From Minisyncoccota bacterium (GTDB lineage Bacteria > Patescibacteriota > Minisyncoccia > Phycocordibacterales > PALSA-1337): DNA of 64,000 nt. Below, piece by piece: positions 30,367-53,480 of this stretch. The position numbers were made by a program, and so were the translations under genes. The DNA lies in the NCBI GenBank assembly GCA_018060945.1, contig JAGOVB010000001.1, positions 5,238-69,237 of the forward strand, written 5' to 3'. The notes under the pieces were generated by a model. The model did no database searches. It worked only from the letters and a program-made list of their open reading frames with translations, and was not told the DNA's origin. Each line of letters opens with the position of its first letter. Within the stretch, counting starts at the first letter, position 1.

Positions 30367-30381
30367 TTAATTTAAACATTT

Positions 30382-33006: not shown

Positions 33007-33011
33007 ACAAA

Positions 33012-33036
33012 AGTAATGCACGCAATTTTGCATTTT
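33012..33036 (+). promoter_or_regulatory. Copy 1 of conserved 25-nt hairpin motif AGTAATGCACGCAATTTTGCATTTT
   Basis: Exact repeat also at 36276 and 41137. AATGCA/TGCATT 6 bp stem, 8 nt loop, then a T-run. Located 6 nt after the terminase stop and 24 nt before the portal start. Confidence 0.6.
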
Positions 33037-33059
33037 CTAAACCCCATACTGAATCCAAT

Positions 33060-35069
33060 ATGGCATTAGCCCACTACAAGAAACGAGACACGCTTTCCAC
33101 TCAAGCTCTCAAAGAGATTGATTATTCGTATCGATACAAGAAAGCTCGAATGAGCTCTTGGAATAAGAACGAGGACATGATGAATCCTGATCGCACAAGT
33201 CCTGCGGTTGTTTCTCCCTACGGAGGTAGCACCTTCCAGCAAGCTGGTGACACTCGAGCTCAAGTACCTCTCTACAAGATGCACGGATTTGTTCATACGA
33301 TTCTCTCAAAGATTGATAGTCCTCTCACATTTAAATACGTAAAGGGAGAATCGGCAGATTTGAAGAAAGCGAAGCTTATGAATGCGATCAAGGATAAAGA
33401 TTCCAAGGTAGGACGTTGGAACTTCAAAGATTTGATGGGCAAGAGAGATGCAGCAATCTACGGCCGAACAATTTATTTGTACATGACCCGAAATGACAAA
33501 GGAGTTTATAAGAGCCTTTTGAATTTAATTGATCCAAAAGACTTCCTTATTGATCCAGACGTAGGAGGTCTTTGCACGGAAGAAGAAGATGGGAGCGGAG
33601 TTGAGAAAGCAGCATATCTCGGATGGTGGAATACCAAGCTCACTCGAGCTCAGCTTACTCAGGGAATCAAAGATGGGATTTACTACAAGAAAGTTGTTGA
33701 AGAATTGCTTGATGGGGGAGGAAACAATACTACTAAGACTCAGCAGGATATTGATAAGGACAATCGAAAGATCAATGGAGCTCCTCGAGAGCGTTTCAAG
33801 AACGAGAACCAGTTTATTTTCTATACATGGATCACCACTGACGAGAATGATGATCGATACTATCTAGTTCTCACTCCATCGGGTGACTGCATTCGATGCG
33901 AACCCTGGAAAGAAATTCGAAAGAGTGAAAGATATCCAATCTGGACATGGGCAGCATTTCCAGATCCTCGAGAGTTCTGGACACCTTCATATTGCGATTA
34001 TGCACGAGGTATCTTCATGGCTCAGGAAAAGAGCATCAATCAGTCACTTGATAACTCAGAGCAAATTAACAGACCTCAAACCGCTGTAAACGTAGACTAC
34101 GTTCGAAATCTTGCTCAAGTTAGATATCGAAAGGATGGATACATTGAGATTGAAGGAAATATCGATGTGAACAAAGTGCTTCAGACACGCCAGACACCCC
34201 CGATCCAAGGTCCTTTCATGGTCTATGACAAGCTCGAAACAATTGTTGAAGGTGAAAGCGGAGTGACTGCTGGAGTCAAAGGAGTGGGTAACGAAGATAC
34301 TCTCGGAATCTACGAAGGAAATATTGCACAAGCAGGTGATCGCTTCGGACTTTTGAATAAGAGTTATGCCGAAGGTTACTACCGATTTGCAGTTCTTCAC
34401 AAAGAAGGTGTCATGCAGGATTTGAAGAAGAAAACAGCAGTTCAAATTCTCGGTCCTATGGGTCTTGAGATAGAAATGGTTACCTCAAGAGATCTAAAGC
34501 CGTATCAGAACGATTACGACATTCTCGTCGAATCAAGTAATGCTGAAGCTCAAAACAATGCAGTTGAAAGCAAGAATAAGATCACGTTCCTCGGAAACTA
34601 TAAGGGTGATCAGAACATAAATCAGAAAGTTCTTTTTGAAACTCAAGCAGCGATTGCAGGAGTCGATGACGATACAGTCAAAAGACTTCTCGATACGAGT
34701 GACTACGATGCAATCGAAGTAGTAGCTCAAGCTGATGAAGCCTTTCAATTAATTATCGGTGGGGATAAAGCTCCAATTTACAAAGATGCCAATACTGCAT
34801 TCTTGCAGAGACTACATGATCTCTCCGATAAGTTCGATCACGAGCTCACTCCTGAACAGCACGGTGCTGTGTTTGCCTACATCGAGCAAATAACTCCGAT
34901 TGTAGAGCAAAATGCTGCACGTTCGGTTGTGGCTCAGGCAGCGAAGCAAGGCATGATCAGTAATCCAGGTGATGCGGTCGATATTACACCTCCTGGTGAA
35001 AAGATTGATCCTGCCATGCGAGGTGATCCTGTGGCAGATGCGGCAAAAGCCGTAGCATTAACAAAATAA
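33060..35069 (+). CDS. Putative portal protein
   Basis: 669 aa protein directly downstream of the terminase, of portal size and position. No direct motif proof. Confidence 0.5.
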   Translation: MALAHYKKRDTLSTQALKEIDYSYRYKKARMSSWNKNEDMMNPDRTSPAVVSPYGGSTFQQAGDTRAQVPLYKMHGFVHTILSKIDSPLTFKYVKGESADLKKAKLMNAIKDKDSKVGRWNFKDLMGKRDAAIYGRTIYLYMTRNDKGVYKSLLNLIDPKDFLIDPDVGGLCTEEEDGSGVEKAAYLGWWNTKLTRAQLTQGIKDGIYYKKVVEELLDGGGNNTTKTQQDIDKDNRKINGAPRERFKNENQFIFYTWITTDENDDRYYLVLTPSGDCIRCEPWKEIRKSERYPIWTWAAFPDPREFWTPSYCDYARGIFMAQEKSINQSLDNSEQINRPQTAVNVDYVRNLAQVRYRKDGYIEIEGNIDVNKVLQTRQTPPIQGPFMVYDKLETIVEGESGVTAGVKGVGNEDTLGIYEGNIAQAGDRFGLLNKSYAEGYYRFAVLHKEGVMQDLKKKTAVQILGPMGLEIEMVTSRDLKPYQNDYDILVESSNAEAQNNAVESKNKITFLGNYKGDQNINQKVLFETQAAIAGVDDDTVKRLLDTSDYDAIEVVAQADEAFQLIIGGDKAPIYKDANTAFLQRLHDLSDKFDHELTPEQHGAVFAYIEQITPIVEQNAARSVVAQAAKQGMISNPGDAVDITPPGEKIDPAMRGDPVADAAKAVALTK

Positions 35070-35082
35070 TTAAAATAAATTT

Positions 35083-35421
35083 ATGACTGAATCAAATAAT
35101 GTAAAGTTCGTAGAAGATAGCAATAAATGGCTCTGGAAGCGATATGACCAGAACGGATCGGTAATTTATCGAAGTCCTTTGTTCGATACTGAGCGTCTCG
35201 CTCGAGAAGATTATGAACAGTATGGTGATAAGGCTCACACCAATCCTCAAGCTGATGCTCCTGTCCAAGAAGAATCGGCGGAGGTAAAGGGGGGAGTGAA
35301 TGTTGCCTCACCAACTGATACTGCTCCTCAAGATGAAATGGCGGCTGGTAATACTACTCCAGAAGGAGAAGTTGGTGCAGGGAGTGCATCTCCCACTGAG
35401 TCAGAAGCTGGCTTGGTATAG
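35083..35421 (+). CDS. Hypothetical acidic phage protein
   Basis: 112 aa with an acidic/Pro-rich C-terminus, in the head-morphogenesis region. Confidence 0.35.
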   Translation: MTESNNVKFVEDSNKWLWKRYDQNGSVIYRSPLFDTERLAREDYEQYGDKAHTNPQADAPVQEESAEVKGGVNVASPTDTAPQDEMAAGNTTPEGEVGAGSASPTESEAGLV

Positions 35422-35448
35422 TAAGGTCATATATCTCATTGTCATACC

Positions 35449-35823
35449 ATGCTAGCCTTCACATACAAAATTAAGAGAAAAGCCAAGGATAAGGGCGACT
35501 ATCGCATTACAAAGCACGGCCAAGTTGCAGAATTTTCTTTGCGTGAAATGAGCCGTAATGTTGAGCAGGTTCGCAAGCAGGCAAGGGAAATGGAGGCTAA
35601 CGCAAAACTTCAAGAGGCTCTAGCTGACAACATCCGTCGAGCGAATCGTGACCTTGTAGTATGGATAAAAAAGCTGTCTCCAAAAAAACGATACGCTCTC
35701 ACCATGCTTGCCATCCAAGAAAACAAAGCAAAGCAATTCAAGGATCAGGAAAAGATGGCAAAAAGCATTCTTAGGACTCTTTTATCAGAAGATAAAGTCG
35801 TACGTAACCAACTAAAGCTATGA
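35449..35823 (+). CDS. Hypothetical phage protein (coiled-coil)
   Basis: 124 aa, charged and helical. Confidence 0.35.
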   Translation: MLAFTYKIKRKAKDKGDYRITKHGQVAEFSLREMSRNVEQVRKQAREMEANAKLQEALADNIRRANRDLVVWIKKLSPKKRYALTMLAIQENKAKQFKDQEKMAKSILRTLLSEDKVVRNQLKL

Positions 35824-36212
35824 GCGAACCACAAGAAACACAACCCGAACTTACTGGTCCGCACAATGCCGATCAAGAAGTAGACCCAGAGAAGCAAGCA
35901 GCTGAAGAAGCTGAAGTTGAGGAGCTCAATGATGCAATCGATGTGACGAGCGATCTTGTCTCCTGGTCCAAGACTCCTGCCGGTAAGGACACGATAGAGC
36001 GTCTTCAAACTGAATCTCGTAAGGCGATGAACGAACTCTTTGCCGTTCTCCATGACAGTCCAGAGCTAGGGAAATTAATATCAGTTGTAGCTCGATTTGA
36101 AGCGTCGGTGCAGATGCTCAGACGATTTATCGGAGCAGACGAAGACTTGGATACCTTACTCGATGAACTTGCTAGGAAGCGACCTAGTGCAGCAGCTAAG
36201 GTTGCGAAGTAA
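35820..36212 (+). CDS. Hypothetical acidic phage protein
   Basis: 130 aa, highly acidic, with an ATGA overlap to the previous gene. Confidence 0.35.
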   Translation: MSEPQETQPELTGPHNADQEVDPEKQAAEEAEVEELNDAIDVTSDLVSWSKTPAGKDTIERLQTESRKAMNELFAVLHDSPELGKLISVVARFEASVQMLRRFIGADEDLDTLLDELARKRPSAAAKVAK

Positions 36213-36275
36213 AGAAAAGATAAAGTATTTATCAAGAAAAAATCATCAGGAAACTGGTGATTTTTCTATTCCAAA

Positions 36276-36301
36276 AGTAATGCACGCAATTTTGCATTTT
36301 T
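36276..36301 (+). promoter_or_regulatory. Copy 2 of conserved hairpin motif AGTAATGCACGCAATTTTGCATTTTT
   Basis: Identical 25-26 nt to the copies at 33012 and 41137. Lies 64 nt after the 36212 stop and upstream of the scaffold-like gene. Confidence 0.6.
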
Positions 36302-36421
36302 CTGGCATCACACTATCAGCATAGAGGGGCCAACCTCTTTTATTAAAAAGGTTAATGCGCTAATGCTCTGCGTTCCACAATCGAGCATCAATGGGGCGAA
36401 ACCATTGAAAATATAAAACGT

Positions 36422-37273
36422 ATGCCAAAACCACATCAGGAAGCAGCACCCACTGACGATAAGTCAGGAAAAGCTGCAGGGGAATCTCAGCCAGCCGATA
36501 AGGGTGGCAAGAAAGATTCAGACAACCCTTCAAATGGTCAATCGATTGCACAAGTTGCAGGAGCAGAAGGTGATTCCAAGGGAGGTAAGCCTAAAGAAGG
36601 TGATGAGAAAGAAAATCTCATAGTAGACCTCAAGAAAGAGAATCGTGAAATGAAAAAAATGATCCGTGACGAGGTCATTCCTACCATTAAAGATTTGCAA
36701 CAGCAGATCAAGAAAGGAGGTACCACCGCCGATGACGCTCTCGATGAGCTCGACGCACTCGCCAAAGAGTGGGAATTGCAGCCGAAGTTTGTACAGAAGC
36801 TTGCAAGCATCCTTCTCAACAAGTCTAAGAAGCAATTCGAAGACGAGTACCTTTCAGATATCAAAGACATCAAGAAGAAGACCGAGGATCAATCCAAGGA
36901 AATCTCAAATGCGCAGATTACCGGTGCAATCTCAAAAGAGTTTGATCGAGTGATTGCTGACAACCCAGACCTTGCCAAAGTCGCCAAAAAGGAAGCCGTG
37001 AAGAAATACATCATGTCGAGTGAGGAAAACCTCTCACGCACGATGGAAGAAATTCTCGAGGAACTCTATGGTGACGCTGTAAAGCCAGAACCAGGCATGG
37101 AAGGCTACAGCTCTCAGGGCAGCAATCATCAGAAGGAACCAGACTACAAGGCTCCTACTGAAGATGATCACAAGCGCATTGCTCAATCTCGTGAAAAGGG
37201 AGGTCAGGAATTCGAGAAATATCAGGAAGGCTTGATTGATCGCCTGACTCACCGATCACGTCATCGAAAGTAA
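36422..37273 (+). CDS. Putative scaffolding protein
   Basis: 283 aa, highly charged (K/E/D-rich) with predicted coiled coil, immediately upstream of the capsid candidate. Confidence 0.45.
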   Translation: MPKPHQEAAPTDDKSGKAAGESQPADKGGKKDSDNPSNGQSIAQVAGAEGDSKGGKPKEGDEKENLIVDLKKENREMKKMIRDEVIPTIKDLQQQIKKGGTTADDALDELDALAKEWELQPKFVQKLASILLNKSKKQFEDEYLSDIKDIKKKTEDQSKEISNAQITGAISKEFDRVIADNPDLAKVAKKEAVKKYIMSSEENLSRTMEEILEELYGDAVKPEPGMEGYSSQGSNHQKEPDYKAPTEDDHKRIAQSREKGGQEFEKYQEGLIDRLTHRSRHRK

Positions 37274-37317
37274 TTGATTCTGGAAGGGTAAATTTATTCA
37301 CTTAATTTTATCCAACC

Positions 37318-38520
37318 ATGTTAGCAGTATTCAAAGAACAGTTCGATAACGCCTACCAAGCCGTTTTCGACAAAGTGCTCGTGGCAATGGAGATCGCCAA
37401 CACGCGCCTCGAGAAGAAACTCGAGTACGGAGCATCCGTAAAGCGTGTGAAGTATTCTCTCGCACCGATTCGTGTGCGTAACATCACGATAGGTGTAAAC
37501 CGAACCATTGACTCGCTCAATGACTCCGGTGAGACCCTCTTGGTCAATAAGAACAAGGGTGCAGACTTCCGAGTCTCGAAGAAAGAAATGATTCAGGCAG
37601 GCCCACTGAATCCGGCTGAGACTATCGGTGCCGAGGTAGCCAAGAAGCTCTCTCGATACATTGATGCCGATGTTTTTGCGCAAGTAAAAAATGCGCTTAG
37701 AACATTCGATACCGGCGACCTCACCACAATGAGTTCGAACGGAACGGCCATTGTACTTTCCACCACGAATATCCCTCAGCTCCTCGCTCAGGGTCGTGCG
37801 AAGCTCAGGAAGGCGAATCAAGACCTTACGAGTCTTGCCTTGGTTCTCGACAGTTACGGAGGCTCGATTATCGAGCAGTACGTGATGTCGAAGAATATCG
37901 ACCTTGCTGCAGCAGCGTTCAAGAATGGTTACGCCGGACCAGTGGGTGGCGCCGAGTTGTACCTTTCGGAAAACCTTCTCGCAGAAGCCGTTATCACAAT
38001 GGCGTCGAACCCTTCAAACGGAGAGACGTTCTCGATCAATGGCTATATTTACACCTTTGTAACTTCAATTGGCACTACGCCAGGTAATGTCTTGATTGAA
38101 GCTGGTGTCGATGCGACCCGAGACAACCTGATTGATGCGATTCATCAGGCGACCGGTACTGCCGGATCGAAGTATATCGCATGGACTGATGTTGATCCTG
38201 GATACGATCAGTCCAACTGGGTCGACTTGCAGCTTGCTGCGGTTGACAGCGACGGTGCGGACACTATCACCATTACCGGAACTGGTTCAGGTCGTCTTGT
38301 ATTCGGCGGAAACGCTACGTATACAGTCACCAAGAACCTCGTACACGCTTACTACGGTAAGAAGGGTGCGATCGACGTGGTCATCCAAGACCTCGCCGAG
38401 ATGGAAATGGTTGATGATCCATACCAGCGCGCAAAGATCATTCGAGCTGACGCTATCTACGGTATCTTCACGTTTGCCGATGGAAAGCCTCAGTTCCTCG
38501 ACGTTCTTCTCCAGTCGTAA
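37318..38520 (+). CDS. Putative major capsid protein
   Basis: 400 aa following the scaffold-like gene. Strong structured RNA hairpins follow its stop, as expected for a highly expressed capsid gene. Assigned by synteny. Confidence 0.5.
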   Translation: MLAVFKEQFDNAYQAVFDKVLVAMEIANTRLEKKLEYGASVKRVKYSLAPIRVRNITIGVNRTIDSLNDSGETLLVNKNKGADFRVSKKEMIQAGPLNPAETIGAEVAKKLSRYIDADVFAQVKNALRTFDTGDLTTMSSNGTAIVLSTTNIPQLLAQGRAKLRKANQDLTSLALVLDSYGGSIIEQYVMSKNIDLAAAAFKNGYAGPVGGAELYLSENLLAEAVITMASNPSNGETFSINGYIYTFVTSIGTTPGNVLIEAGVDATRDNLIDAIHQATGTAGSKYIAWTDVDPGYDQSNWVDLQLAAVDSDGADTITITGTGSGRLVFGGNATYTVTKNLVHAYYGKKGAIDVVIQDLAEMEMVDDPYQRAKIIRADAIYGIFTFADGKPQFLDVLLQS

Positions 38521-38532
38521 ATGCTGCACTGA

Positions 38533-38581
38533 CCCGAGCGAAAGTTCGGGCTCAGTGTCAGGCGCAGGGGCTAATCCCTGC
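38533..38581 (+). other. Twin stem-loops downstream of the capsid gene
   Basis: CCCGAGC-GAAA-GTTCGGG (7 bp stem with GNRA tetraloop) and GCAGGG-GCTAAT-CCCTGC (6 bp stem). No U-run follows. Confidence 0.5.
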
Positions 38582-38604
38582 CTCTGGCACTGAGAAATAA
38601 AAAT

Positions 38605-39234
38605 ATGGCAACACCACTTACCGGACAACAAATTATTGAAAGATTCGAGTTGTATACAGATGATACGACTGATCTTTCGAGTGATGAGGAACTTATTCTT
38701 GCCAATGACAAGATTCGCTTGGTGTACATGGAGCAACCTTGGGAATTTCTACGCAGGAAGAAGTCAGGGGCAGTAGAGATAGACGGAAAAATTACTTTAC
38801 CAATTGATTTTGATGAATTCCTAGAAAACTTTAGTGACGATCCAACAATCGGTGAGCCAATTATGAGGGTGGTCTATATAGGTAGTCAGAAAGCTCCGTA
38901 TCTCGTGGTGCCTATGGGTCAGAGAAATGCCAATAACTTTAGCAATGTCTGTTGGATTGATCCTTCTGATGGAAAAATAAACTTCTCACAGAATCCTGGC
39001 ACTGGTGCCTCTTACGAATATGACTACAAGACAAGCCCTGATGACATCACAGTAGGTACATCTCCAAAACTTCCTCCTGAATACCATCCAATGATTGTAT
39101 TCTCGATGCTTATCGATGAAGACATCATCAAGAAGTCTGAGAAGGCTCGAAGCAACATGCAGGACAATGCGGTTCAGTATCAGCGCTACATGAAAAATCT
39201 AAAGTTGCGAGATGCTCGCTTTAAACTTGCGTAA
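38605..39234 (+). CDS. Hypothetical virion protein (head-tail adaptor candidate)
   Basis: 209 aa, immediately after the capsid gene. Assigned by position. Confidence 0.35.
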   Translation: MATPLTGQQIIERFELYTDDTTDLSSDEELILANDKIRLVYMEQPWEFLRRKKSGAVEIDGKITLPIDFDEFLENFSDDPTIGEPIMRVVYIGSQKAPYLVVPMGQRNANNFSNVCWIDPSDGKINFSQNPGTGASYEYDYKTSPDDITVGTSPKLPPEYHPMIVFSMLIDEDIIKKSEKARSNMQDNAVQYQRYMKNLKLRDARFKLA

Positions 39235-39239
39235 TTTAT

Positions 39240-41138
39240 ATGGCTAATCATGAAATTAAAAAATTTGGATCAGGAGTACATAATCGTGAAGACAATGAGG
39301 ATACTCCCAAAGACAGTGCCAAAGATGGTCTCAATTGGCTAACGATTGATGGACGTATTGAACTCGCTCGAGGAAAAGTAACTGTGGGTCCCGAGGGTCC
39401 TGCCGGTGCGTGCCCGGCAATCCATGTAGGATACAAAGCAAACGGTACAGGCATTTTGTGGAGAAAAGTAGCGACTGCAATTCAGTATTTTACAGGTGTC
39501 ATTTGGGTCGATGTTGTTACAGGACTTAATCCCAACGATATCTATGTCTTTGCGAACTACAGCTCACTTACAGGCGCTTGGACGTTTGTGGGTGGTCCAG
39601 GAGGGGTATTCAAATTTGCAAACTCAAATCCCACGAGTTATATCCAGCTTTACACAACTACAGACTTTTTTTGTGGGTATCCACTGATTGATAAGGCAAG
39701 AATGTATCTCTGGGGAATTGCAAAAGATCCCACAAGTCTTTATCGAAGCTATATCGATGTACAACGAGATGGAACGAGTTTCACTCAAATATCAAATGAA
39801 AATGCTGCAAGTGGAAACGGATCACAAACAGTATTCTCTGGCACACTCGCATTCAAGACAGGACAGCCGAAACGAAACTGTGGACTTGTGACTATTAAGT
39901 GTACAGATGGAGGTGGTGAAATATTTACTGACGACAAAAACGGAAACCTGAAGGGAACTGCTGGAGGTGCTGGAACTATAAATTATATCACTGGAGCGTG
40001 GAGTGTGACCTTTGTGACCGTCCCAGCAAATATTGCAAACAACATCAAAGCTGACTATGTCTGGGAGAATAGCACTAGCAAAGGTGTTGCTGACTTTACC
40101 TACAGCGCTTCACGGCTTGCCGGAGAAGGGGACGTGATTCGCCAGGATGAAGGTGGTGATGCCATTCAGCAACTCGTGATTGGTATTGATGGAAATTACT
40201 ACTCACTCAAGAAACAGAGTGCATATCAACATAAATATACTGATGATGATAAAAGTTTTAATAATCAAGTGGTCCGAAGAAATATCGGTGTACTTACCCG
40301 GAAAAGCTCGGTAACTACTGGACGAGGTGTTGTTTTCATCAACACTGCGAACCCAGACAGACCACAGCTTACAGTCCTAGAAAAGAATCCTCTCGGTGAT
40401 GATATTCTCGCAACTGAACTCATTCCACATTTTGCTTGGGAGAGATTTGATTACTCAGATGCGGTTATGGAAACTTACGGACAATTTATTGTCCTCTCGT
40501 GCCGTGCCCAATCGAGCATCGTGAACGATAGAACGCTCGTGATCGACATCGTAAAAAATACTGTCGACATCTCAAACTACGGCATGAAGGCACTCATCAA
40601 GGATTCTGGAGTGCTCTATGGCGGAAGTCCCCACACTCAGACGGTTTATAAAATCCTGAATGGATTTGATGACGATGGCTACGTTATCCAAAATAACTGG
40701 GACAGCAAGTACGAAACCTATGGTGTTCGAAGGCTCAAGAAATATAGAAGACTACGATATCGAGGTGAGATTGATCCTGCTCAATATGTAGAAGTCTATG
40801 CTGATTTTGATGGAGCAGGGTATGCACTCATTGGAACGATTCGAGGAGATGGAACCTACGTCAATCGCACGAGCCCCTCAAGTGTGGGTACAACCATGAT
40901 CGGAGATGCTGCTGTTGGAGGCGACGGAGCAGCTCAGGTATACCCATACGAACTCCAAATCAAGGCAATGAAGATTCCAAAGTTCCGAAGACGCAGCATT
41001 CGCTTCATAGCCAAGGGAATAGGCTATGTGAGCGTAATGGAGTCGGTCGATTGGGACATCCTGACCTACGAGGACAAATTACCAAAGGTCTACAGGCAAA
41101 AAGAGCATGTCAGTCTCGATGGCAAAAGCGTGAACTAG
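39240..41138 (+). CDS. Hypothetical large virion structural protein
   Basis: 632 aa, Gly/Thr/Asn-rich and beta-rich in composition, in the tail region. Confidence 0.4.
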   Translation: MANHEIKKFGSGVHNREDNEDTPKDSAKDGLNWLTIDGRIELARGKVTVGPEGPAGACPAIHVGYKANGTGILWRKVATAIQYFTGVIWVDVVTGLNPNDIYVFANYSSLTGAWTFVGGPGGVFKFANSNPTSYIQLYTTTDFFCGYPLIDKARMYLWGIAKDPTSLYRSYIDVQRDGTSFTQISNENAASGNGSQTVFSGTLAFKTGQPKRNCGLVTIKCTDGGGEIFTDDKNGNLKGTAGGAGTINYITGAWSVTFVTVPANIANNIKADYVWENSTSKGVADFTYSASRLAGEGDVIRQDEGGDAIQQLVIGIDGNYYSLKKQSAYQHKYTDDDKSFNNQVVRRNIGVLTRKSSVTTGRGVVFINTANPDRPQLTVLEKNPLGDDILATELIPHFAWERFDYSDAVMETYGQFIVLSCRAQSSIVNDRTLVIDIVKNTVDISNYGMKALIKDSGVLYGGSPHTQTVYKILNGFDDDGYVIQNNWDSKYETYGVRRLKKYRRLRYRGEIDPAQYVEVYADFDGAGYALIGTIRGDGTYVNRTSPSSVGTTMIGDAAVGGDGAAQVYPYELQIKAMKIPKFRRRSIRFIAKGIGYVSVMESVDWDILTYEDKLPKVYRQKEHVSLDGKSVN

Positions 41139-41162
41139 TAATGCACGCAATTTTGCATTTTT
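41137..41162 (+). promoter_or_regulatory. Copy 3 of conserved hairpin motif AGTAATGCACGCAATTTTGCATTTTT
   Basis: Overlaps the TAG stop of the 39240 gene, 20 nt before the next gene. Confidence 0.6.
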
Positions 41163-41181
41163 CCACATTCATACTTACAAC

Positions 41182-41955
41182 ATGGCATCCAAACTCACTA
41201 AAGTAGTCGCAAACTTCGAAACATCTCTTGCCACAAAGCTAGCTAACGGGGCTACTTCAGGTGCTCTTACGAGCATCACTGACAAAAATAGTGTAGCCCT
41301 TCCTGCTGGCAAATATTGCATGATCATTGACCGAGGAACCGGTGACGAAGAACATCTCCTGTTCGATCTCTCAGGTACAGCTATGAGCAATATCTTTAGC
41401 GTTTCAAGACAAGGTGTCCAAACTGCTGGAGTCCAAAATCTCAATGGCCATAGAGCAGGATCAAAATGCTATCTCACCGATTTTGTGAACCTCAAAGTCA
41501 TTGTCGACATTCTGAATGGCGCCGATTCTCTCGATTCAGCAAATCCTGTGAAATATGATGCTGATCCGACTTTCAATGATTCAAAGCAAGTTGTCTCAAA
41601 GGGATATGTAGATGTGAACCTAGCCGGTAAAGCATCAACAAACGGAAACAATACCTTCACTGGAAATAATAATTTTATAAACTCTCCGAATGTTCCCAAT
41701 GCGGTAAGCGCATCACAGCCCGTAACACTCTCACAGCTCATGGCTGCTGCGCTAACTGGTATTCAGGCAGGACTTGAGTATGTCGATATCGCATTAAATG
41801 CTGACGGAAGCGTCAGGTCCCTTCATGACAACGTGAATGGAAAGACGATTGTGTTTGAGTACGACGATAACCGATTGCTTCGAAGCATCTATGACGGCGT
41901 GAAGAAGTGGTCAGTTAGAGCTGTCGATGAGAGGATCGCAAGCATTATTCATTAA
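41182..41955 (+). CDS. Hypothetical virion protein (fibre/adaptor-like)
   Basis: 257 aa, Ala/Ser/Asn-rich. Confidence 0.35.
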   Translation: MASKLTKVVANFETSLATKLANGATSGALTSITDKNSVALPAGKYCMIIDRGTGDEEHLLFDLSGTAMSNIFSVSRQGVQTAGVQNLNGHRAGSKCYLTDFVNLKVIVDILNGADSLDSANPVKYDADPTFNDSKQVVSKGYVDVNLAGKASTNGNNTFTGNNNFINSPNVPNAVSASQPVTLSQLMAAALTGIQAGLEYVDIALNADGSVRSLHDNVNGKTIVFEYDDNRLLRSIYDGVKKWSVRAVDERIASIIH

Positions 41956-41969
41956 TTTAATTTTTTAAC

Positions 41970-44048
41970 ATGATTAATTTACAAGTAGATCGAAGGTTAG
42001 ATAAGACGACAATAGTTAAAGGGCAACAGACTGTACCTTTCCCTAAATTTGTCGAATGGGATAGACCAGGAATGGCACAATGGCCTGCCGTTAAAGCGCA
42101 AGGGAAACTCACTATGCCGAATCAGCCCTCAGTGGGAGAGACGATCACTCTCGGCATAAAAACATACTCTTTCGTGGCAAGTCTTGTTACCAATACTGAT
42201 GGTCAGATTGTGATTGGTGCCAGTGTTGCGGCTACTCGTGCAAATATTATGGCTGCTGTGAATCTTTCGGGTCTACCTGGAAGTCAGTATGCAACCGCAA
42301 CCTCTCTTAACGGCGATGTGGAAGTAACTTCCATCTCAGGAAATGACATTTTCTTTACTGCAAAAGTAGGTGGTACCGCAGGAAACTCCATAGCATCAAC
42401 ATCCACACTTGTCGCTCCTAACGTATTTGATGCATCGACTCTTGGAACTTACCGAGCCGGTGCAGCCGCAAGTGATGCTGACTCCTTGATCATCCCCGGA
42501 TACCGAGGATGCTTCAACAACTATGTGAATAATATGTACAACAACCGAGAAATGTTCTACGTCGGCCGAGCATCATGGGATGGCGATGAAGACAGAGCAT
42601 TCGGTATTCAAAATGAACTTCTGCGAGAGTTTCCTTTCCATGAGTATTTCATAAGTCCTGGTGCTACTCGAAAGATGTATGCAATGAACTTCATTGAAAA
42701 GAGGGTAAAGAGTGTGAAAACTCTGACGATGTACACAAAACTTAGAGATATAGAGACTCAGACACTCTCATCGCCATTTGCCAAATCAACAAGTAACGTC
42801 GTCTTTAAAACTCTTGAACTCGACGCAACTCGATTTATAACTTTCTACCGTCAGCAAGCAGGTACGACAGGAATCTATGCAGTTGTAGGAAATACAAATG
42901 CAAACGGAACGATCACATGGGGTGCTCCGCTTCTCATGTACACAGTCGACTGGTATAACGAAAACTTTGATGCGGTGGTAATTAATACCGACAAAGTTTT
43001 GATGGCGCTTCCAAATGGAGGATCGAACTTTATTCACACAGCCGTTCTCACAATTTCTGGAACTGGTATCGCCCTCAACACACCGGTCCAGGTTGTAGCA
43101 CTCGCACCAGCATATAAGCAGCTTGTGAAGGTTGGAACTGATAAGGCAATCCTAGCCTTTGAAAACGGTGGTGCGATTAACCTCTATTGCGTTTCAGTTT
43201 CTGGAACCGTTCCATCATACGGAACACTCGCAAGCGTCGCTTCAACATCAAAACCTCACCTTGCTCCAAACGGAACTGACAAATGCCAGATTGCATACAT
43301 TGGCTCGGGCGGATGGTATTCAGCTGTAGTTACGACCTCAGGAAGCACAATCACAGTACAGGCCGGAGTCCAAATTAGCTACGATGCAAACTTTCAGTAT
43401 CGACATATTTGGCTATTTCCACTAGCGACAGATACTTTCGTTTTCTGGAGTCATTGGGGACAGGTTCAATTTCAAACTAGAGATCGATACAAAATGGGAC
43501 TCATAACTGTTTCTGGTACGAACACAACTCTTGCAAGCAGCACCTACGTTCCGTGTGGCTGGTGGGGAAACATGATGTATCCAAAATCGATAGATGCAAC
43601 AAACTTCTATCTTTATCGCTTCGAGAATAGTCGTATCACAGGAGGAAAGGTCACATTAAGTAACGGATCTCTATCACTCGCCAACATGCCATACAAAGGA
43701 TTTGGTTGGAATGAAAATGATGGAGGTCAGGCAAATTACAGATATCAGCAATATAACAACATGCCTCAAATTGCTGATCCTGTGAGTTGTAATGGCAACA
43801 TGTTTTTCATTACTACTGACAACAATATGAGTGGTCAGTTTGCTGTGTACAGTGACAGGTCGTTTAGCTTCGATCTTTACAACGGGGATGATTATTTCGG
43901 TACATTCACAAAATCTGATCTTGGGTTTATGCAAAAGATTGTTGTCGATATTCCGATTGGTAAAGAAGAATTTGGTCTAAAGATAAAGAGCAATGACAGC
44001 GTAGTACGCACTGCAATGATCGATCACATGTATCTGATAACTGATTAA
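41970..44048 (+). CDS. Hypothetical large virion protein (tail fibre / receptor-binding candidate)
   Basis: 692 aa, Gly/Thr/Ser/Asn-rich with many aromatic residues, typical of beta-rich tail proteins. Confidence 0.4.
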   Translation: MINLQVDRRLDKTTIVKGQQTVPFPKFVEWDRPGMAQWPAVKAQGKLTMPNQPSVGETITLGIKTYSFVASLVTNTDGQIVIGASVAATRANIMAAVNLSGLPGSQYATATSLNGDVEVTSISGNDIFFTAKVGGTAGNSIASTSTLVAPNVFDASTLGTYRAGAAASDADSLIIPGYRGCFNNYVNNMYNNREMFYVGRASWDGDEDRAFGIQNELLREFPFHEYFISPGATRKMYAMNFIEKRVKSVKTLTMYTKLRDIETQTLSSPFAKSTSNVVFKTLELDATRFITFYRQQAGTTGIYAVVGNTNANGTITWGAPLLMYTVDWYNENFDAVVINTDKVLMALPNGGSNFIHTAVLTISGTGIALNTPVQVVALAPAYKQLVKVGTDKAILAFENGGAINLYCVSVSGTVPSYGTLASVASTSKPHLAPNGTDKCQIAYIGSGGWYSAVVTTSGSTITVQAGVQISYDANFQYRHIWLFPLATDTFVFWSHWGQVQFQTRDRYKMGLITVSGTNTTLASSTYVPCGWWGNMMYPKSIDATNFYLYRFENSRITGGKVTLSNGSLSLANMPYKGFGWNENDGGQANYRYQQYNNMPQIADPVSCNGNMFFITTDNNMSGQFAVYSDRSFSFDLYNGDDYFGTFTKSDLGFMQKIVVDIPIGKEEFGLKIKSNDSVVRTAMIDHMYLITD

Positions 44049-44055
44049 AATATTA

Positions 44056-45651
44056 ATGAATTCCTACACGATACAATACGGCGATACTCTAAGCGGAATC
44101 GCATCGAAGACCGGAAAGAGCATGCAAGAGCTCATGCGTCTAAATCCGTCAATAACTGATCCCAACAAAATCTATGCTGGGCGTACTTTGTCGTTAGGTG
44201 CTTCACCCGCTCCAGCTCCTGCACCAGCTCCGACTCCTGCGGCAAAACAGACAATCGCTCAAGTGGCGAAAGTGACCGTTCCAACTTTCGTAGAAGACTC
44301 AGGTAGGGCTCAGATAGGTAAAGACCTCAAGTCTCAAGCTACACAACAAGCGAATGATGAGGCAATTCGGGCAGCCACAAGAGCTCGCATTCAGGGACAA
44401 ATTGATGCTATAAACGCTGCTGTACAAGATCAAATAATCAACTTTAGAAATACCACAGGTAAAAACCGGCAAGGTCAAAGCTACGCATTGGCAGCAGCTG
44501 GGGGTCGAATTGGAAGTCCTACCGGAGAAGCAGAATTTCAGAAAGTTGAAGATTATAACAATCAAGAGGAGCAAACATATCGAAGTGAAGCGAATCTTAA
44601 AATCTCTGCTCTCTATGGTCAGGCAAATCGGGATGCTGATGCAGAGATTAAAACAAAACGAGAGGCAATTCAGCAGGGTATCGATAAATATTTTGAATTT
44701 CTAGATAACCAAGGTCAACGAAAACGTGAGCAAGTTTCAGCATTCGTTAAAAATATGTTGGCACTTGGAGTTGACCCAACATCTCTCAGTGATGCTGACT
44801 TCGAGAAACTTCAAGATCAGTATGGATTTAGTAAGGAGCAGCTCTCAACTTTGTATAACGATGCAAAAGCAGAAAGAGATCAATCTACTCTCAAAACTGA
44901 AAAAGAAAAGGTTGATCTTGATAAAGCCAAGAATGATGCAAATCAATTTAGCCTCAATGAAGGCGATGCTCGTTATGTTTACGATCCTGAAACTGGCACG
45001 GCGAAACTTATTGCTTCTCGAGCTAAAACTTATGCGCCAAAAGGTGCAGATGGTCCAGATACTCCTGGCACAAGTCTCGGATATGATGATCCGAATTACA
45101 CTCTCGACTCTATTCGCAAATCAAAAGGCGGAAGATTCCTCACTCAAGGCGAGCTAAAACCCATCACTGATATTCAAACTGTTGTTGGCCAAGCGGAAAC
45201 TCTTTCTGGTCTCATAAATAGTGTTGATACCGGTCCAATTGTTGGAATCGTAAAGAGTGCAAATCCTTACGACACAAAAGCACAGCTCATGAAATCAGCA
45301 ATCACTGCGATCGTTCCAAAACTTGCTCGAGGTGTTTATGGAGAAGTGGGTGTACTTACTGATGCTGACATTGAGAACTACTCTCGAACCATTGCGAATC
45401 TGAAGAATACAGCTGATGTGAACAAGGCGGTCATGGCAATGACACTTGATATCGCTACTCGATCTCTTGCGAATCAGTTGAACTCACTCTCAGCTGGTGG
45501 CAGAGATGTATCAAGATTCGAAGCAATTTATACAGGAATGAATACTAAAGCAGCTTCAATCAAATCGGAGTTGGGTACGGGTCAACCTCAAACATCACAG
45601 CCTTCACCTTTCACAAGTAAGAGCGGAAAGACATATAACCTTCCAAACTAA
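44056..45651 (+). CDS. LysM-domain virion protein with (Pro-Ala)n linker and coiled-coil region
   Basis: N-terminal LysM (YTIQYGDTLSGIASKTGKSMQELMRLNPSITDPNKIYAGRTLSL), then an APAPAPAPAPTPA linker and a long helical region. Confidence 0.6.
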   Translation: MNSYTIQYGDTLSGIASKTGKSMQELMRLNPSITDPNKIYAGRTLSLGASPAPAPAPAPTPAAKQTIAQVAKVTVPTFVEDSGRAQIGKDLKSQATQQANDEAIRAATRARIQGQIDAINAAVQDQIINFRNTTGKNRQGQSYALAAAGGRIGSPTGEAEFQKVEDYNNQEEQTYRSEANLKISALYGQANRDADAEIKTKREAIQQGIDKYFEFLDNQGQRKREQVSAFVKNMLALGVDPTSLSDADFEKLQDQYGFSKEQLSTLYNDAKAERDQSTLKTEKEKVDLDKAKNDANQFSLNEGDARYVYDPETGTAKLIASRAKTYAPKGADGPDTPGTSLGYDDPNYTLDSIRKSKGGRFLTQGELKPITDIQTVVGQAETLSGLINSVDTGPIVGIVKSANPYDTKAQLMKSAITAIVPKLARGVYGEVGVLTDADIENYSRTIANLKNTADVNKAVMAMTLDIATRSLANQLNSLSAGGRDVSRFEAIYTGMNTKAASIKSELGTGQPQTSQPSPFTSKSGKTYNLPN

Positions 45652-45652
45652 A

Positions 45653-47953
45653 ATGCTTACACGATTACAAATACAAGATAATATCGATGCCCTAGAAGAA
45701 CAGGGAGCAAGCCAGGATGAAATTCAGGAGTGGCTTGATAGTTTACCTAAACAATCCTCACAGGCTGAACCCGAACCTCCGAAAAAGGAAGGGATTTTTA
45801 AAAGGATAGGAAAGGCCATCATTTCAAGCGAGCTTAAATTTGGTAAAAGCATTGCTGATGCCATGCCTTCGTTTGTGCCAGGAAGTGCGGCGTGGACGAA
45901 CAAGCAAAATGAACAGATTATGGCAAACCAACACGCCATGATGGAAAACTTATTGGTCCAAAGAAAGAAGCTCAAGGCTGAGGGTAAAGATACCTCACGT
46001 ATCGATGCCGCAATTCAAGATATGCAGGAGCAAATGAGTAAGCCTGCAATCGATATTAATGAGACAAATGCTTCAGTAAACAAAACAGCTAAACAAGTCT
46101 TTGGTGAAGGTCTCGGTGTGGCAGCAGACATCCTCTCGGCTGGATCATATGGAAAAGCAGCTCAAGGCGCTCAGAGTGGCAAGTTACTTATTGCAGGCAA
46201 GGCTTCCGGAAAGGTTGCGAATGTTCTCGGTAAAGCAGGAATTCAAAGTACAGTCTCACCGGCTGCAGGTGCGCTTCCAAGCATCATCGGTGGAGGTACG
46301 AAGGCTCAGGCTGCGCTCAAAGGTGCATGGCAAGGTGCAAAACAAGGATTCACATCCGGTGCAGTCTTTGGCACTGCCCAAGGTGCCACTCGAGCAATGC
46401 AGGATAACAAAGAAAATATCGACATTGTATCTGATGCGATTACTGGCGGTGTGGTTGGAGGTGTTGCCGGTGGAGTAGTTGGTGGAGTTGTGGGAGGTAC
46501 AAGCGGATACATCAATCGTCGTAGGGAAATAAATAAATTGCTAAAGCCTGCCATGACACCGGATGAGACGATGAATTCTCTTCACAAAGAAATTGCTACT
46601 CATGCCGATGAGACTTCATTTAAGACATCTATTCAAAAAGGTGATCTTACAATCGATCAGGTCTATCAAAAGAATGGTGCTCTTAATCCTGAACTTGCGA
46701 AAGGTAGGATTGATGATATTGCAGCAAACCTCGATCTCAAGGTCCCAGGTGCTGGAGAAAAATATAGAACTCTCATTGATCCGAATAATACGAGCTTCGA
46801 CGAGCTTATTTCAAAAGCCGATGATGTTATCGATGAAAGCAGGAAGATTCCTGTTGAAGCTATTAAATACACAGTAAATGCTGAAGGCAAAAAAGTATTT
46901 GATACAAAAGCAAACGAGGCTCTCAAGGCAGGTATTGCAGATCAAGACATAGCCTTTATTAAAAACGCCTCTGCTGCAGATAAAAAAATATTTGATAAAG
47001 CGATGAAGGTTGCTGAGCAGGCATCAAAAGATAAGACCTACGCACGTCAGCCCGTTGAGCAAGCAGGTAAAGTTATCATTGACCAAGCAAACACCGTAGA
47101 AAATGCTCGCATGAAAGTCGGGTCCGAACTTGGTATTGTTCGCTCAAAACTCGCAGCTGTACCAGTTGATGTGACTGACACTGCACAAAACTTCTACGAT
47201 GATCTTGCAGATGCAGGTATCTCTGTTGGTGACGACGGTCTCGATTTCTCTAAGTCAAAATATGCGAATGTTCCTAAAATTCAGAAACTGGTCGAGAGTG
47301 TTCATCAGCGATTAGTGAGTGCAGGGGATACACCGAACGTAAAAACTGTAGATATGATTCGACAACAACTTGGTACTGAAGTTGATCTAGGAACTCTTGA
47401 AGGAAATCTCGATAAGAGTGCAAAGCGAATCTTGCAAAAAGTTTATGGAGGCTTGGGAGAAAATATCACCTACATTGATCCAAAATATGCAGAACTCTCA
47501 GATCAATATTCAAAGCTTACAAGTGCGATGGATTACTTCCAGAGAGCTCTCGGAAAAGACTTTGATGCAACCAATATTAATTCTGCGTTGAAAGCAGGTG
47601 AAGTCGGCCGACGAATGCTTGGTAACGCTGCATCTCGGCCGCTGGTTGTGGTTGAAAACATCCAAGACCTTGCACGAGCATATGGCTACAATCCCAATGT
47701 TGACTCTCGTAGTCAAATTCTCTTTGCAAGCTTCCTAGAAGACCTCTTTGGCACTACTCAATCCCAGAGTCTACAAAGTCAGATGACAAAGGGGGTTAAT
47801 GCAGCCGAAGAAGCCACAGGAGCTCTCACAGACGCTGCTACAGGTAACGCAAGCGGACTTATGTCCAAAGCACTCCGAAAAGGCATAAATCTGGTCCGAA
47901 ATATCACGCCAGAGCGACAAATTGAGGCTGTAAGGGCTCTTATTACCCCATAA
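45653..47953 (+). CDS. Tape-measure-like / internal virion protein (Gly-rich repeats)
   Basis: 766 aa, mostly alpha-helical and charged, with a GGVVGGVAGGVVGGVVGGTSG repeat. Lies just upstream of the lysis cassette. Confidence 0.45.
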   Translation: MLTRLQIQDNIDALEEQGASQDEIQEWLDSLPKQSSQAEPEPPKKEGIFKRIGKAIISSELKFGKSIADAMPSFVPGSAAWTNKQNEQIMANQHAMMENLLVQRKKLKAEGKDTSRIDAAIQDMQEQMSKPAIDINETNASVNKTAKQVFGEGLGVAADILSAGSYGKAAQGAQSGKLLIAGKASGKVANVLGKAGIQSTVSPAAGALPSIIGGGTKAQAALKGAWQGAKQGFTSGAVFGTAQGATRAMQDNKENIDIVSDAITGGVVGGVAGGVVGGVVGGTSGYINRRREINKLLKPAMTPDETMNSLHKEIATHADETSFKTSIQKGDLTIDQVYQKNGALNPELAKGRIDDIAANLDLKVPGAGEKYRTLIDPNNTSFDELISKADDVIDESRKIPVEAIKYTVNAEGKKVFDTKANEALKAGIADQDIAFIKNASAADKKIFDKAMKVAEQASKDKTYARQPVEQAGKVIIDQANTVENARMKVGSELGIVRSKLAAVPVDVTDTAQNFYDDLADAGISVGDDGLDFSKSKYANVPKIQKLVESVHQRLVSAGDTPNVKTVDMIRQQLGTEVDLGTLEGNLDKSAKRILQKVYGGLGENITYIDPKYAELSDQYSKLTSAMDYFQRALGKDFDATNINSALKAGEVGRRMLGNAASRPLVVVENIQDLARAYGYNPNVDSRSQILFASFLEDLFGTTQSQSLQSQMTKGVNAAEEATGALTDAATGNASGLMSKALRKGINLVRNITPERQIEAVRALITP

Positions 47954-47999
47954 AGTAATGCACCACTTTTTGCCAAAAAGTGGATTTAAGCTTGGGGTA
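47944..47999 (+). terminator. Nested stem-loop carrying a variant of the AGTAATGCA motif
   Basis: Outer stem TACCCCA/TGGGGTA, inner stem CCACTTTTT-GCC-AAAAAGTGG (9 bp). It overlaps the TMP stop and ends at the ATG of the next gene. Confidence 0.45.
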
Positions 48000-48280: not shown

Positions 48281-48283
48281 TTT

Positions 48284-48889: not shown

Positions 48890-48983
48890 GGTACATATCG
48901 CAAACCCTAGTAGCATTGGCAGCATTTCTATTTGCGTATGCGATCTGGCTCGAGCACGTGCATTAATAATTAACAAAATATTT

Positions 48984-49163: not shown

Positions 49164-49256
49164 ATAGGAAGTATCGTATTCGATTTCTAAAGCTCTGTAT
49201 AAGGCCTATACGGGGCTTTAGAATACGTAATGGCCATGCTAAAATGGTTTTAACGG

Positions 49257-50330: not shown

Positions 50331-50334
50331 TTTT

Positions 50335-53474: not shown

Positions 53475-53480
53475 AATTTT

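Follow-up and report, generated by a model that had tools for sequence, protein, structure and literature searches.

A 25-nt motif repeated through the late region of a prophage is, in the reading that we favor with a probability of roughly 70%, the upstream recognition element of phage late promoters, four of which (P1 to P4) occur here and which would depend on an activator and yield leaderless or nearly leaderless mRNAs. The motif is probably read by a phage-encoded DNA-binding protein. The window, meaning the whole 64-kb stretch of DNA analyzed, is bacterial chromosome rather than phage from position 1 to about 27900, a part that ends with an S13-S11-S4-RpoA-L17-L13-S9 operon; the phage part is a small prophage whose host is a CPR bacterium of the Saccharibacteria type. 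Its portal and adaptor are of the SU10 (podovirus) type, the 283-aa and 400-aa genes downstream of the P2 leader are the probable scaffold and capsid, and P4 precedes a 93-aa membrane protein and then an amidase, which form a lysis unit. The terminase label assigned by the initial annotation to the gene upstream of copy 1 was correct, and we found no support for its "TMP" label of the 766-aa gene.

The sequence AGTAATGCACGCAATTTTGCATTTT was detected at 33012, 36276, and 41137, with no occurrence expected by chance (0 matches in 100 shuffles). As a 26-mer, the motif is exact at 36276 and 41137, and the copy at 33012 carries a single mismatch at the last base (C), which leaves 25 nt common to all three. 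The copy at 47954 is a weaker variant in which 16 of the 26 positions are common to the other copies, including AGTAATGCAC and TTTTGC. A repeat finder assigned 33010, 36274, 41135, and 47952 to a single family of 22-nt repeats with an identity of 82% or more, and a position weight matrix (PWM) scan over the entire window returned these four sites only, the next best scoring at most 5 bits. The repeated motif described by the initial annotation was thus confirmed by exact search, repeat finder, and PWM, and its sites are not randomly placed: all four copies are intergenic and on the + strand. The AGTAATGCA 9-mer occurs at two other positions, 9875 and 15875, both within ORFs and neither matching the remainder of the motif. 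The distances reported previously to the upstream stops and the next genes also held on re-measurement at every copy. Copy 1 starts 5 nt past the terminase stop (33006), with the next ATG at 33060; copy 2 starts 63 nt past the stop at 36212 (next ATG, 36422); copy 3 overlaps the stop TAG (41136–41138) of the 632-aa gene (next ATG, 41182); and copy 4 immediately follows the stop at 47953 (next ATG, 47999). The parts of the four putative promoters are as follows.

33012..33037, + strand: P1 upstream element, composed of AGTAAT, the specificity block GCACGCAA, and TTTTGCATTTTC; 46.0 bits
33045..33050, + strand: P1 -10-like hexamer CATACT, separated from AGTAAT by 27 nt and from the portal ATG (33060) by 9 nt
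36276..36301, + strand: P2 upstream element; exact consensus copy, 45.9 bits
36309..36314, + strand: P2 -10-like hexamer CACACT; in relatives, at the same spacing, CACACT, CAAACT, TACACT, or GATACT
41137..41162, + strand: P3 upstream element; exact consensus copy, 49.4 bits
41170..41175, + strand: P3 -10-like hexamer CATACT, exactly 6 nt before ATG 41182
47954..47979, + strand: P4 upstream element, variant; AGTAAT GCACCACT TTTTGCCAAAAA, 15.9 bits
47987..47992, + strand: P4 -10-like hexamer TAAGCT, 27 nt past AGTAAT and 6 nt before ATG 47999

In each copy, AGTAAT is followed by an 8-nt block (here GCACGCAA) and a second, T-rich box (TTTTGCATTTTT); 7 variable nt then separate this box from a weak -10 hexamer. 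At P1, relatives carry the upstream element at the orthologous position ahead of the portal gene, its predicted position is about -45 to -20, and there is no Shine-Dalgarno sequence; the CATACT is unchanged in an 89%-identical relative although the flanking bases differ. At P3, the position 7 nt downstream of the hexamer is the A of the ATG. The block of P4 is the one that a different phage clade (L010, L011, and L029) has at P2, and the P4 layout recurs in L012 at 18386 (TACTAT, 6 nt, ATG). A -35 hexamer is absent from P1–P4, and the conserved element lies further upstream than the site of sigma region 4, both of which count against the promoter reading.

The same geometry was found at the host genes of the window, where TGnTATAAT stands 6–9 nt before the ATG at 1837, 14097, 17161, 21507, 25079, and other positions. 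Hexamers resembling a -10 peak 6 nt upstream of starts and are enriched across positions 5–10 (11 observed vs about 3.6 expected), and almost no gene has a Shine-Dalgarno sequence; the phage hexamers (CATACT, CACACT, and TAAGCT) are without the TG extension found at the host promoters. The mRNAs of P1, P3, and P4 are predicted, from sequence, to be leaderless or nearly so. In the leaderless units of Actinobacteria, Deinococcus, and others, a -10 hexamer lies about 6–7 nt before the start codon, as exemplified by the leaderless transcriptome of Mycobacterium tuberculosis (cited in PMC12641261). Host genes and phage promoters here are alike in having the hexamer 6–9 nt before the ATG and no Shine-Dalgarno sequence, and differ in belonging to a Saccharibacteria-type genome, where the arrangement is deduced from the sequence; our literature search turned up no published map of start sites in this group.

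We then compared about 60 related loci drawn from IMG/VR viral contigs, metagenomes, and MAGs named Patescibacteria or Saccharibacteria. The conserved architecture was AGTAAT, 27 nt, a -10-like hexamer (yAnACT), 6–11 nt (mostly 6 or 9), and ATG, except at P2, where a structured and conserved leader of 100 nt takes the place of the short gap to the ATG. AGTAAT was nearly universal among the family copies, and copies at the orthologous P1, P2, and P3 sites carried a hexamer of the form nAnAnT 27 nt past it. At orthologous P3 sites located by coding sequence alone, A2, A4, and T6 were present in 17 of 17 cases, with the hexamer at -12 to -7 from the ATG. Counting against the promoter reading, one clade (L003, L018, L067, and L069) shows an apparent spacing of 29 nt rather than 27. 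Repeated 10-mers of GTAAT plus 5 nt occurred 85 times on the coding strand of the related loci and once on the opposite strand. Motif positions 7–14 form a phage-specific block, alike among the copies of one phage and differing between phages: positions 7–12 are identical in 84–100% of within-genome copy pairs, whereas positions 7 and 9–12 match in 36–59% of between-genome pairs, position 8 being conserved in both.

In the mechanism that we propose, a phage protein would bind the upstream element at about -45 to -20, and the host RNA polymerase would start 6–8 nt past the -10-like hexamer. Judged by this geometry, transcription would begin on the ATG or a few nt from it at P1, P3, and P4, and near 36321, the foot of the conserved structured leader, at P2. 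The core promoters are weak, so firing would need the bound phage protein. Two further features belong to the P2 region.

36235..36267, + strand: intrinsic terminator ending the portal unit, with the stem UCAUCAGG/CUGGUGA between an A-tract and a U-tract; -14.4 kcal/mol, z -4.3
36321..36421, + strand: P2 structured leader; 5'-terminal hairpin AGAGG-GGCCAA-CCTCT (36323–36338) plus two more hairpins

The terminator lies 10 nt upstream of copy 2, and the orthologous hairpins of relatives differ in stem sequence and keep the pairing; the folding energies of terminators immediately upstream of P2 run from -14 to -18 kcal/mol, with z between -2.3 and -5.7. The leader has no match in Rfam and shows compensatory changes in one stem (TGCTC/GAGCA to TGCTT/AAGCA, TGCCC/GGGCA, and TGTCC/GGACA) and in another (CAATGG/CCATTG to CGATGG/CCATCG and CGAGGG/CCCTCG). 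Inside copy 4 lies a terminator-like 9-bp hairpin, CCACTTTTT-GCC-AAAAAGTGG (47963–47983). Together with the terminator and this hairpin, P1–P4 would divide the late region into four units, for portal, capsid, tail, and lysis. Some relatives carry an extra copy, P0, before the packaging genes; it is absent from this prophage, and terminase expression here is therefore not accounted for by the promoter scheme. In L016, L027, and L032, an additional motif copy directly follows the gene of the following protein.

29986..30366, + strand: candidate specificity factor, a 126-aa orphan phage protein with an HTH-like bundle, co-varying with motif positions 7–14

The structural model of this protein predicts, with confidence, an N-terminal three-helix (HTH-like) bundle. 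Residues C102, H104, C111, C114, and H126 of the C-terminal part are invariant, which suggests that they may bind zinc. Its best structural matches, which were weak, were all HTH DNA-binding regulators, and neither sequence nor structure searches linked it significantly to a known family of regulators or a known structure. Across 21 genomes, block distance correlated at rho 0.43 (Mantel p 0.0005) with distance in the 126-aa protein and at rho 0.60 with distance in its HTH region (residues 27–56), compared with 0.30 for the portal, 0.21 for g30382, 0.16 for a RepO-like protein, 0.10 for g35449, and 0.06 for TerL, a co-variation that is confounded by shared ancestry and for which the blocks of divergent clades were aligned by hand. 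The ranking repeated in 25 dereplicated genomes (0.31 and 0.49 vs 0.19, 0.16, and 0.05). The gene is the last before the packaging and structural genes, and such early/late junctions are the usual place of late activators (PMC3152322, PMC3753634). We infer that the 126-aa protein is the best candidate for the late activator.

The same co-variation would be expected were the protein a repressor, and an operator is the first alternative: a phage repressor, possibly this one, would silence four otherwise constitutive late promoters in the lysogen. The element adjoins or overlaps the core promoter and is partly palindromic in this phage (ATGCA-N8-TGCAT), as the initial annotation had proposed for an operator. 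However, the palindrome is not kept across the family, the conserved part, at -45 to -32, is further upstream than repressors usually act, the weakness of the core promoters (-10 off TATAAT, no TG extension, no -35) would seem to make repression unnecessary, and the junction position is the usual one for a late activator; we consider an operator unlikely.

It is improbable that the motif is instead an RNA processing site, at which a host or phage endoribonuclease would cut a long late transcript and possibly make leaderless 5' ends. Recognition at the RNA level is compatible with the sequence, and the motif's place between cistrons, its strict strand bias, and its strongly conserved sequence would fit. 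This explanation nevertheless accounts neither for the constant 27-nt spacing to a hexamer that bears the -10-like A2/A4/T6 signature nor for a hexamer–ATG distance equal to the TATAAT–ATG distance at host genes; the motif has no conserved RNA structure, and the strong terminator before P2 would let little read-through RNA reach that site.

A promoter for a phage-encoded sigma factor or RNA polymerase, comparable to the promoters of T7-like phages, which are long and almost identical to one another, or to those of SPO1/T4 sigma factors, could explain three copies identical over 25 nt with positions 7–14 varying between phages, and a highly diverged sigma like T4 gp55 may be present among the unannotated small proteins. 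We regard it as quite improbable, given that scans of prophage genes with Pfam, PHROGs, or NCBIfam yielded neither an RNA polymerase nor a sigma-like protein, that the downstream hexamer resembles an ordinary sigma-70-family -10, and that the 27-nt spacing does not suit a -35/-10 pair.

The AATGCA/TGCATT stem with its 8-nt loop exists in the sequence as first described but is weak and missing in many relatives. That its RNA form with the U-run acts as a weak intrinsic terminator or attenuator, stopping or pausing RNA polymerase after each upstream gene, is highly improbable: the three main copies resemble Rho-independent terminators in having an inverted repeat and then a T-run just past a stop codon, and the hairpin test was not cleanly negative (helix cells paired in 69.5% vs 64.3% in shuffles; 47 instances), but the stem is A/T-rich and 6 bp long, the 41-nt stretches, of which it is only part, fold at a marginal -4.7 to -7.3 kcal/mol (z -1.0 to -1.8; 10–26 of 200 shuffles fold equally well), the terminator scan did not list it, the inner GCA/TGC pairs in 53–64% of instances with most pairing being AAT against the T-run, whole clades have a stemless element (TCCTACAG type, ACACCCTA type, and most P1 sites of the GCACCA type), and separate true terminators adjoin copy 2 and lie inside copy 4. 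Among the functions suggested initially, the hairpin-based ones thus fell away, and the late-promoter element dividing the late region into expression units was supported by the comparative evidence.

Late promoters of the kind proposed here have close parallels. In Gram-positive temperate phages, small DNA-binding proteins of the RinA/ArpU/Ltr families are required for turning on the morphogenesis and lysis genes (PMC3152322, PMC3753634). As in those systems, a small phage DNA-binding protein (here a candidate) is encoded just before the packaging genes and the site lies upstream of a weak promoter, whereas the 126-aa protein has no detectable sequence similarity to these families, four promoters are spread across the late region instead of one in front of terS, none precedes the terminase genes of this prophage, leaderless transcripts are predicted, and the host is a CPR bacterium. 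The arrangement of several late promoters with a common upstream site, a -10, and no -35 is also shared with Mu and P2/186/P4. Those phages have several late promoters per genome, with a conserved upstream site, a recognizable -10, and a poor or absent -35, served by a small phage activator (Mu C protein; the Ogr, B, and Delta zinc-finger activators, of which Ogr and Delta bind zinc). Their activators show no homology to the candidate, and the P2-type site is a dyad centered near -55, in contrast to the element here, which has no conserved dyad and spans about -45 to -20. T4 middle promoters combine a MotA box, TTTGCTTTA, near -30 with a sigma-70 -10 and act with AsiA. They are likewise marked by a phage-specific box in place of the -35 upstream of an ordinary -10, and TTTTGCTTT occurs in the second box of some relatives (L004, L010, and L011). 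Unlike the MotA box, the box here is about 4 nt closer to the -10 and is missing from P1 of several clades, the most conserved part (AGTAAT plus the block) lies further upstream, and no MotA or AsiA homologues were found. The system would thus be of a known type, in a host clade that is as yet unexplored.

The left 28 kb of the window is bacterial chromosome that carries tRNA-Ala, G6PD, YchF, LeuRS, MnmA and AlaRS and ends in an S13-S11-S4-RpoA-L17-L13-S9 operon with a strong terminator at 27866-27898. A compact phage genome follows, with its genes arranged in this order:

From about 28.1 kb: RepO-like protein, C5 methyltransferase, three small proteins, large terminase
Next: SU10-type portal and adaptor, unannotated structural genes, LysM protein
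Last: small membrane protein, and an amidase ending at 48889

Annotated relatives were unusable, since megablast with 31000-48500 found no counterpart among GenBank phages, where the protein-level matches of TerL were at most 30% identical. Portals 79-95% identical were found both in contigs from IMG/VR and in MAGs labelled Patescibacteria, Candidatus Saccharibacteria, Parcubacteria or Paceibacteria, and the flanking host genes differ among the genomes with a related prophage. From its relatives in such MAGs and these differing flanks, we regard the element as a mobile prophage of CPR bacteria, the host assignment following the MAG names of the relatives. No integrase, attachment-site repeat or tRNA was found at the prophage ends (27900-28160 and 48890-49260). 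Here the prophage immediately follows the rpsI terminator; in relatives it occupies other loci, for example after GAPDH in L032 (L-numbers denote related loci from viral contigs, metagenomes and MAGs).

Several neighboring genes were recorded in passing. Three C5 cytosine methyltransferase genes, located in 49257-52796 and 28734-29981, have conserved motif stretches in common at the DNA level; one is in the prophage and two flank a BpuJI-like restriction endonuclease just to its right. A cluster at 52956-59108, possibly host chaperone machinery, encodes GrpE-like (172 aa) and Hsp70-like (830 aa, unusually long) proteins, an AAA ATPase (369 aa) and two unannotated proteins of 487 and 200 aa. 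On the host side, a 364-aa protein (12994-14088) has an unusual domain combination, with region 4 as its only sigma-70 domain, at the N-terminus (residues 32-86), and an RNA polymerase delta-like HARE-HTH (237-297). In LeuRS (10010-12997; true start probably 10286), a NUDIX domain (ORF residues 442-555) separates the editing domain from the remainder of the catalytic core.

A 25-nt motif recurs in the late region of the prophage, all copies being on the + strand:

33012 (+), copy 1, site P1, before the portal gene
36276 (+), copy 2, site P2, before the 283-aa and 400-aa genes
41137 (+), copy 3, site P3, before the 257-aa gene
47954 (+), copy 4 (a weaker variant), site P4, before the lysis genes

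The initial annotation had reported three identical copies, and we confirmed this: a 26-mer is exact at 36276 and 41137, and its last base differs at 33012, so that 25 nt are shared. The placement of the copies relative to stop and start codons had also been described correctly, while the label "TMP" given to one upstream gene found no support. A PWM derived from related sequences, run over both strands of the 64 kb, returned the four known sites only, at 49.4, 46.0, 45.9 and 15.9 bits, with everything else at 5 bits or less. Shuffled sequence gave 0 matches (100 shuffles), and a repeat finder grouped the site at 47952-47973 with the three main copies as one family. The 9-mer AGTAATGCA was found twice more, at 9875 and 15875, both within ORFs and with no further likeness to the motif. 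The first of these (9875-9913), with CATCAT after 27 nt, lies within a small ORF (9855-10070) upstream of LeuRS and is probably a chance match, its PWM score being about 0.

The motif is most likely the upstream element of late promoters, with the start points placed from their geometry. At each site across the relatives, exactly 27 nt separate AGTAAT, or a close variant of it, from a hexamer of the yAnACT type; the hexamers in the window are CATACT, CACACT, CATACT and TAAGCT. As in -10 elements of the sigma-70 family, the hexamers carry A2 and T6 and keep a fixed, short spacing to the predicted transcription start. The distance from hexamer to ATG is 6 nt at P3 and P4, and 6-11 nt, mostly 9, at P1. 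When P3 sites were located by coding sequence alone, A2, A4 and T6 were present in 17/17 hexamers, exactly 6 nt before the ATG. In a relative 89-90% identical, both motif copies are exact and the CATACT 8 nt downstream is kept, with the surrounding bases changed.

Each related phage has 2-4 motif sites on the coding strand at orthologous positions, namely P1, P2, P3 and P4, and in some phages also P0, after the homologue of the gene at 29986. Repeated 10-mers of GTAAT plus 5 nt in the related loci numbered 85 on the coding strand versus 1 on the other. As in activator-dependent phage late promoters (RinA/ArpU/Ltr, Mu C, P2 Ogr type), one conserved upstream site is common to the predicted late promoters and occurs nowhere else in the 64 kb. 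No TTGACA-like -35 hexamer lies 16-18 nt upstream of the -10 at the four sites; the sequences 17 nt upstream of the hexamers (GCAATT, CCTATT, ACAGAA etc.) are without conservation, and a consensus promoter scan of the window listed none of the four. The upstream element would span about -45 to -20 in place of the -35. One clade (L003, L018, L067, L069 and L070) has an upstream element reading ATGATT/TTGATT GCACACAC, and there the distance from it to the hexamer is apparently 29 nt, not 27, or the hexamer is ambiguous (TAAATA vs AATAAT). A test for internal repeats within the motif gave modest signals for a direct repeat (0.47, at offset 12) as well as an inverted one (0.56); the two are not separable because TGCA is self-complementary.

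Host genes of the window (1-27900) are almost wholly devoid of Shine-Dalgarno sequences, and first genes of operons show TGnTATAAT 6-9 nt before the ATG:

1825-1839, TGnTATAAT example at 1837
10274-10288, TGnTATAAT example at 10286
14084-14099, TGnTATAAT example at 14097
17149-17163, TGnTATAAT example at 17161
21493-21509, TGnTATAAT example at 21507
25065-25081, TGnTATAAT example at 25079

Hexamers resembling a -10 are about three-fold enriched 5-10 nt before start codons, with a peak at 6, and the host promoters in the window also lack a -35 and have TGn instead. This geometry bears the signature of leaderless transcription units, which, to judge from the sequence, implies that leaderless mRNAs are widespread in the CPR-type host. 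The motif sites are read as promoters because they share the geometry of these host genes; compared with the host promoters, their hexamer is poorer, the TG extension and the -35 are absent, and a long conserved upstream element is found instead. Transcription would start at each of P1-P4.

Two features mark P2 as the start of a unit: a terminator precedes it, and a conserved, covarying leader of 100 nt follows. The terminator (36235-36267), 10 nt upstream of copy 2, is a genuine one (-14.4 kcal/mol, z -4.3), and its counterparts in relatives have the same structure with different stem sequences. Behind P2, relatives likewise have a conserved hairpin followed by the 283-aa and 400-aa genes. 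The leader of ~100 nt (36321-36421) between P2 and these genes forms three hairpins, with compensatory changes across relatives in two of them. An Rfam search of 27800-49300 assigned it to no family and gave two chance-level snoRNA matches only. The leader could act on the scaffold and capsid genes as a stabilizer or as a translational operator.

Next to the invariant part of the motif lies a block that is specific to each phage. Positions 7-12 match in 84-100% of within-genome pairs. In between-genome pairs the figure falls to 36-59% for positions 7 and 9-12, with position 8 conserved in either comparison. The blocks fall into the types GCACGCAA (the window), GCACCCAA, GCACTCAA, ACACCCTA, GCACCA, GCAACG, TGACACAG, TCCTACAG, ACCTACCG, ACCCACAA and GCACACAC. 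Two types, GCACTC and GCAACA, coexist in each of L027 and L032. The P4 block of the window (47954-47979), GCACCACT TTTTGC, equals the P2 block of another clade (L010 9387, L011 5321, L029 13215), and the lysis genes behind P4 are nearest to those of L012 (75-80%); together these suggest that the lysis module was exchanged along with its promoter.

A block that differs from phage to phage would need a specificity factor encoded by the phage itself. Among the prophage proteins scanned, there was no sigma factor, RNA polymerase or T7-like single-subunit RNA polymerase. The 126-aa protein encoded at 29986-30366 (+) is kept in all relatives, its gene lying at the early/late junction. The extra motif copy P0 lies directly after this gene and before the packaging genes (L016 6572, L027 6037, L032 6030); the window has no copy there, where 30366 to 30382 leaves just 15 nt. 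The model of the protein shows an N-terminal three-helix bundle (pLDDT >90), and C102, H104, C111, C114 and H126 are invariant. Its best structural matches are weak and all HTH regulators, with Foldseek E-values no better than 0.05. Neither the protein nor 20 relatives matched Pfam, PHROG or NCBIfam, a PDB sequence search with it gave no match, and no homology to a known late-activator family was detected. The family comprises 52 representative clusters among 1.84 billion (E <=0.001).

In 21 genomes, block distance correlated with the distance of the 126-aa protein (rho 0.43, Mantel p 0.0005; residues 27-56, rho 0.60), which, as the genomes share ancestry, is suggestive and not proof. The corresponding values were 0.30 for the portal, 0.21 for g30382, 0.16 for the RepO-like protein, 0.10 for g35449 (g30382 and g35449 being other prophage genes) and 0.06 for TerL. 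The 126-aa protein co-varied best with the block among 6 proteins (common-set Mantel) to 11 (pairwise test), the correlation was unchanged once portal and TerL distances had been regressed out, and the ranking holds on 25 dereplicated genomes including new metagenome loci. Proteins with ...IRFH... pair with nCCyAC blocks, and those with ...I(I/L/Y)FH..R.. with GCAC blocks. These correlations are suggestive of the 126-aa protein as a candidate reader of the motif. The co-variation would fit equally if it were a repressor.

Beyond the promoter reading, we propose tentatively, at a probability of about 0.35, that this orphan family of ~126-aa HTH/zinc-type proteins is the late-gene switch in one lineage of small, podovirus-like phages that infect Saccharibacteria and related CPR bacteria, reading a lineage-specific 8-nt code beside the invariant AGTAAT, and that matched, mutually orthogonal protein/promoter pairs drive leaderless mRNAs.

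The initial annotation had considered the motif hairpin a possible terminator, a claim that we do not uphold. The stem AAUGCA/UGCAUU is marginal, with two G-C pairs; the folding energy of the 41 nt around each copy is -4.7 to -7.3 kcal/mol (z -1.0 to -1.8), and copy 4 has its own 9-bp hairpin. The copies form no stable G+C-rich stem-loop directly before a U-tract, as a rho-independent terminator does, and a terminator scan of the window did not report them. The six stem pairs, scored on 47 distinct instances (18 genomes), form in 69.5% of cells versus 64.3% in shuffles. Most of this pairing sets the invariant AAT opposite the T-run, the inner three pairs being kept in just 53-64%, and whole clades retain the element without any stem, e.g. 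AGTAATTCCTACAG... in at least 6 genomes.

Other readings were rejected. A sigma-54 promoter (TGGCACG-N4-TTGCW, GG/GC doublets 10 nt apart) has the wrong spacing and no conservation: the motif reads ATGCACG-N5-TTGCA, with TG in place of GG and one nt too far apart, and relatives read TACACC, TTCCTA etc. A Bacteroidota-type promoter (TTTG at -33, TAnnTTTG at -7), prompted by CAATTTTG, was rejected because the TA is unconserved and the relatives are in Patescibacteria MAGs. TTGCAT as -35 leaves just 11 nt to the hexamer, and AGTAAT as -10 has G where A is invariant and leaves the downstream hexamer unexplained. The idea of a huge phage equipped for translation, prompted by LeuRS, AlaRS and G6PD, was dropped, as the ribosomal-protein/RpoA operon shows these to be host genes.

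To our knowledge, almost nothing is known of transcription and translation in CPR (Patescibacteria) bacteria and their phages, and we found no publication that analyzes promoters or leaderless expression in Saccharibacteria or in the phages that infect them. Surveys catalog the prophages of Saccharibacteria without analysis of regulation, and the word "promoter" is absent from one of them (PMC10746230). The locus offers promoter sequences, predicted leaderless expression in host and phage, a conserved structured leader before the capsid genes and a candidate regulator with natural specificity variants, and any of these could be put to use for gene expression in the few Saccharibacteria that are in culture. 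If the protein/promoter pairs are indeed matched, this would be the first description of a regulatory circuit in CPR phages, and the pairs would supply inducible, orthogonal expression parts for organisms only lately genetically tractable.

The principle of a phage late activator acting with a weak promoter is already well known, so that conceptually the finding is a modest surprise. Mu C, P2 Ogr and the T4 MotA box are examples of such activator-dependent promoters. The 126-aa protein is not a detectable member of these families or of RinA/ArpU/Ltr. In temperate phages, the late promoters of the RinA/ArpU/Ltr type depend on a small phage activator (PMC3152322, PMC3753634). The sites described here resemble them in having a small phage protein, in this case a predicted activator, encoded at the early/late junction.
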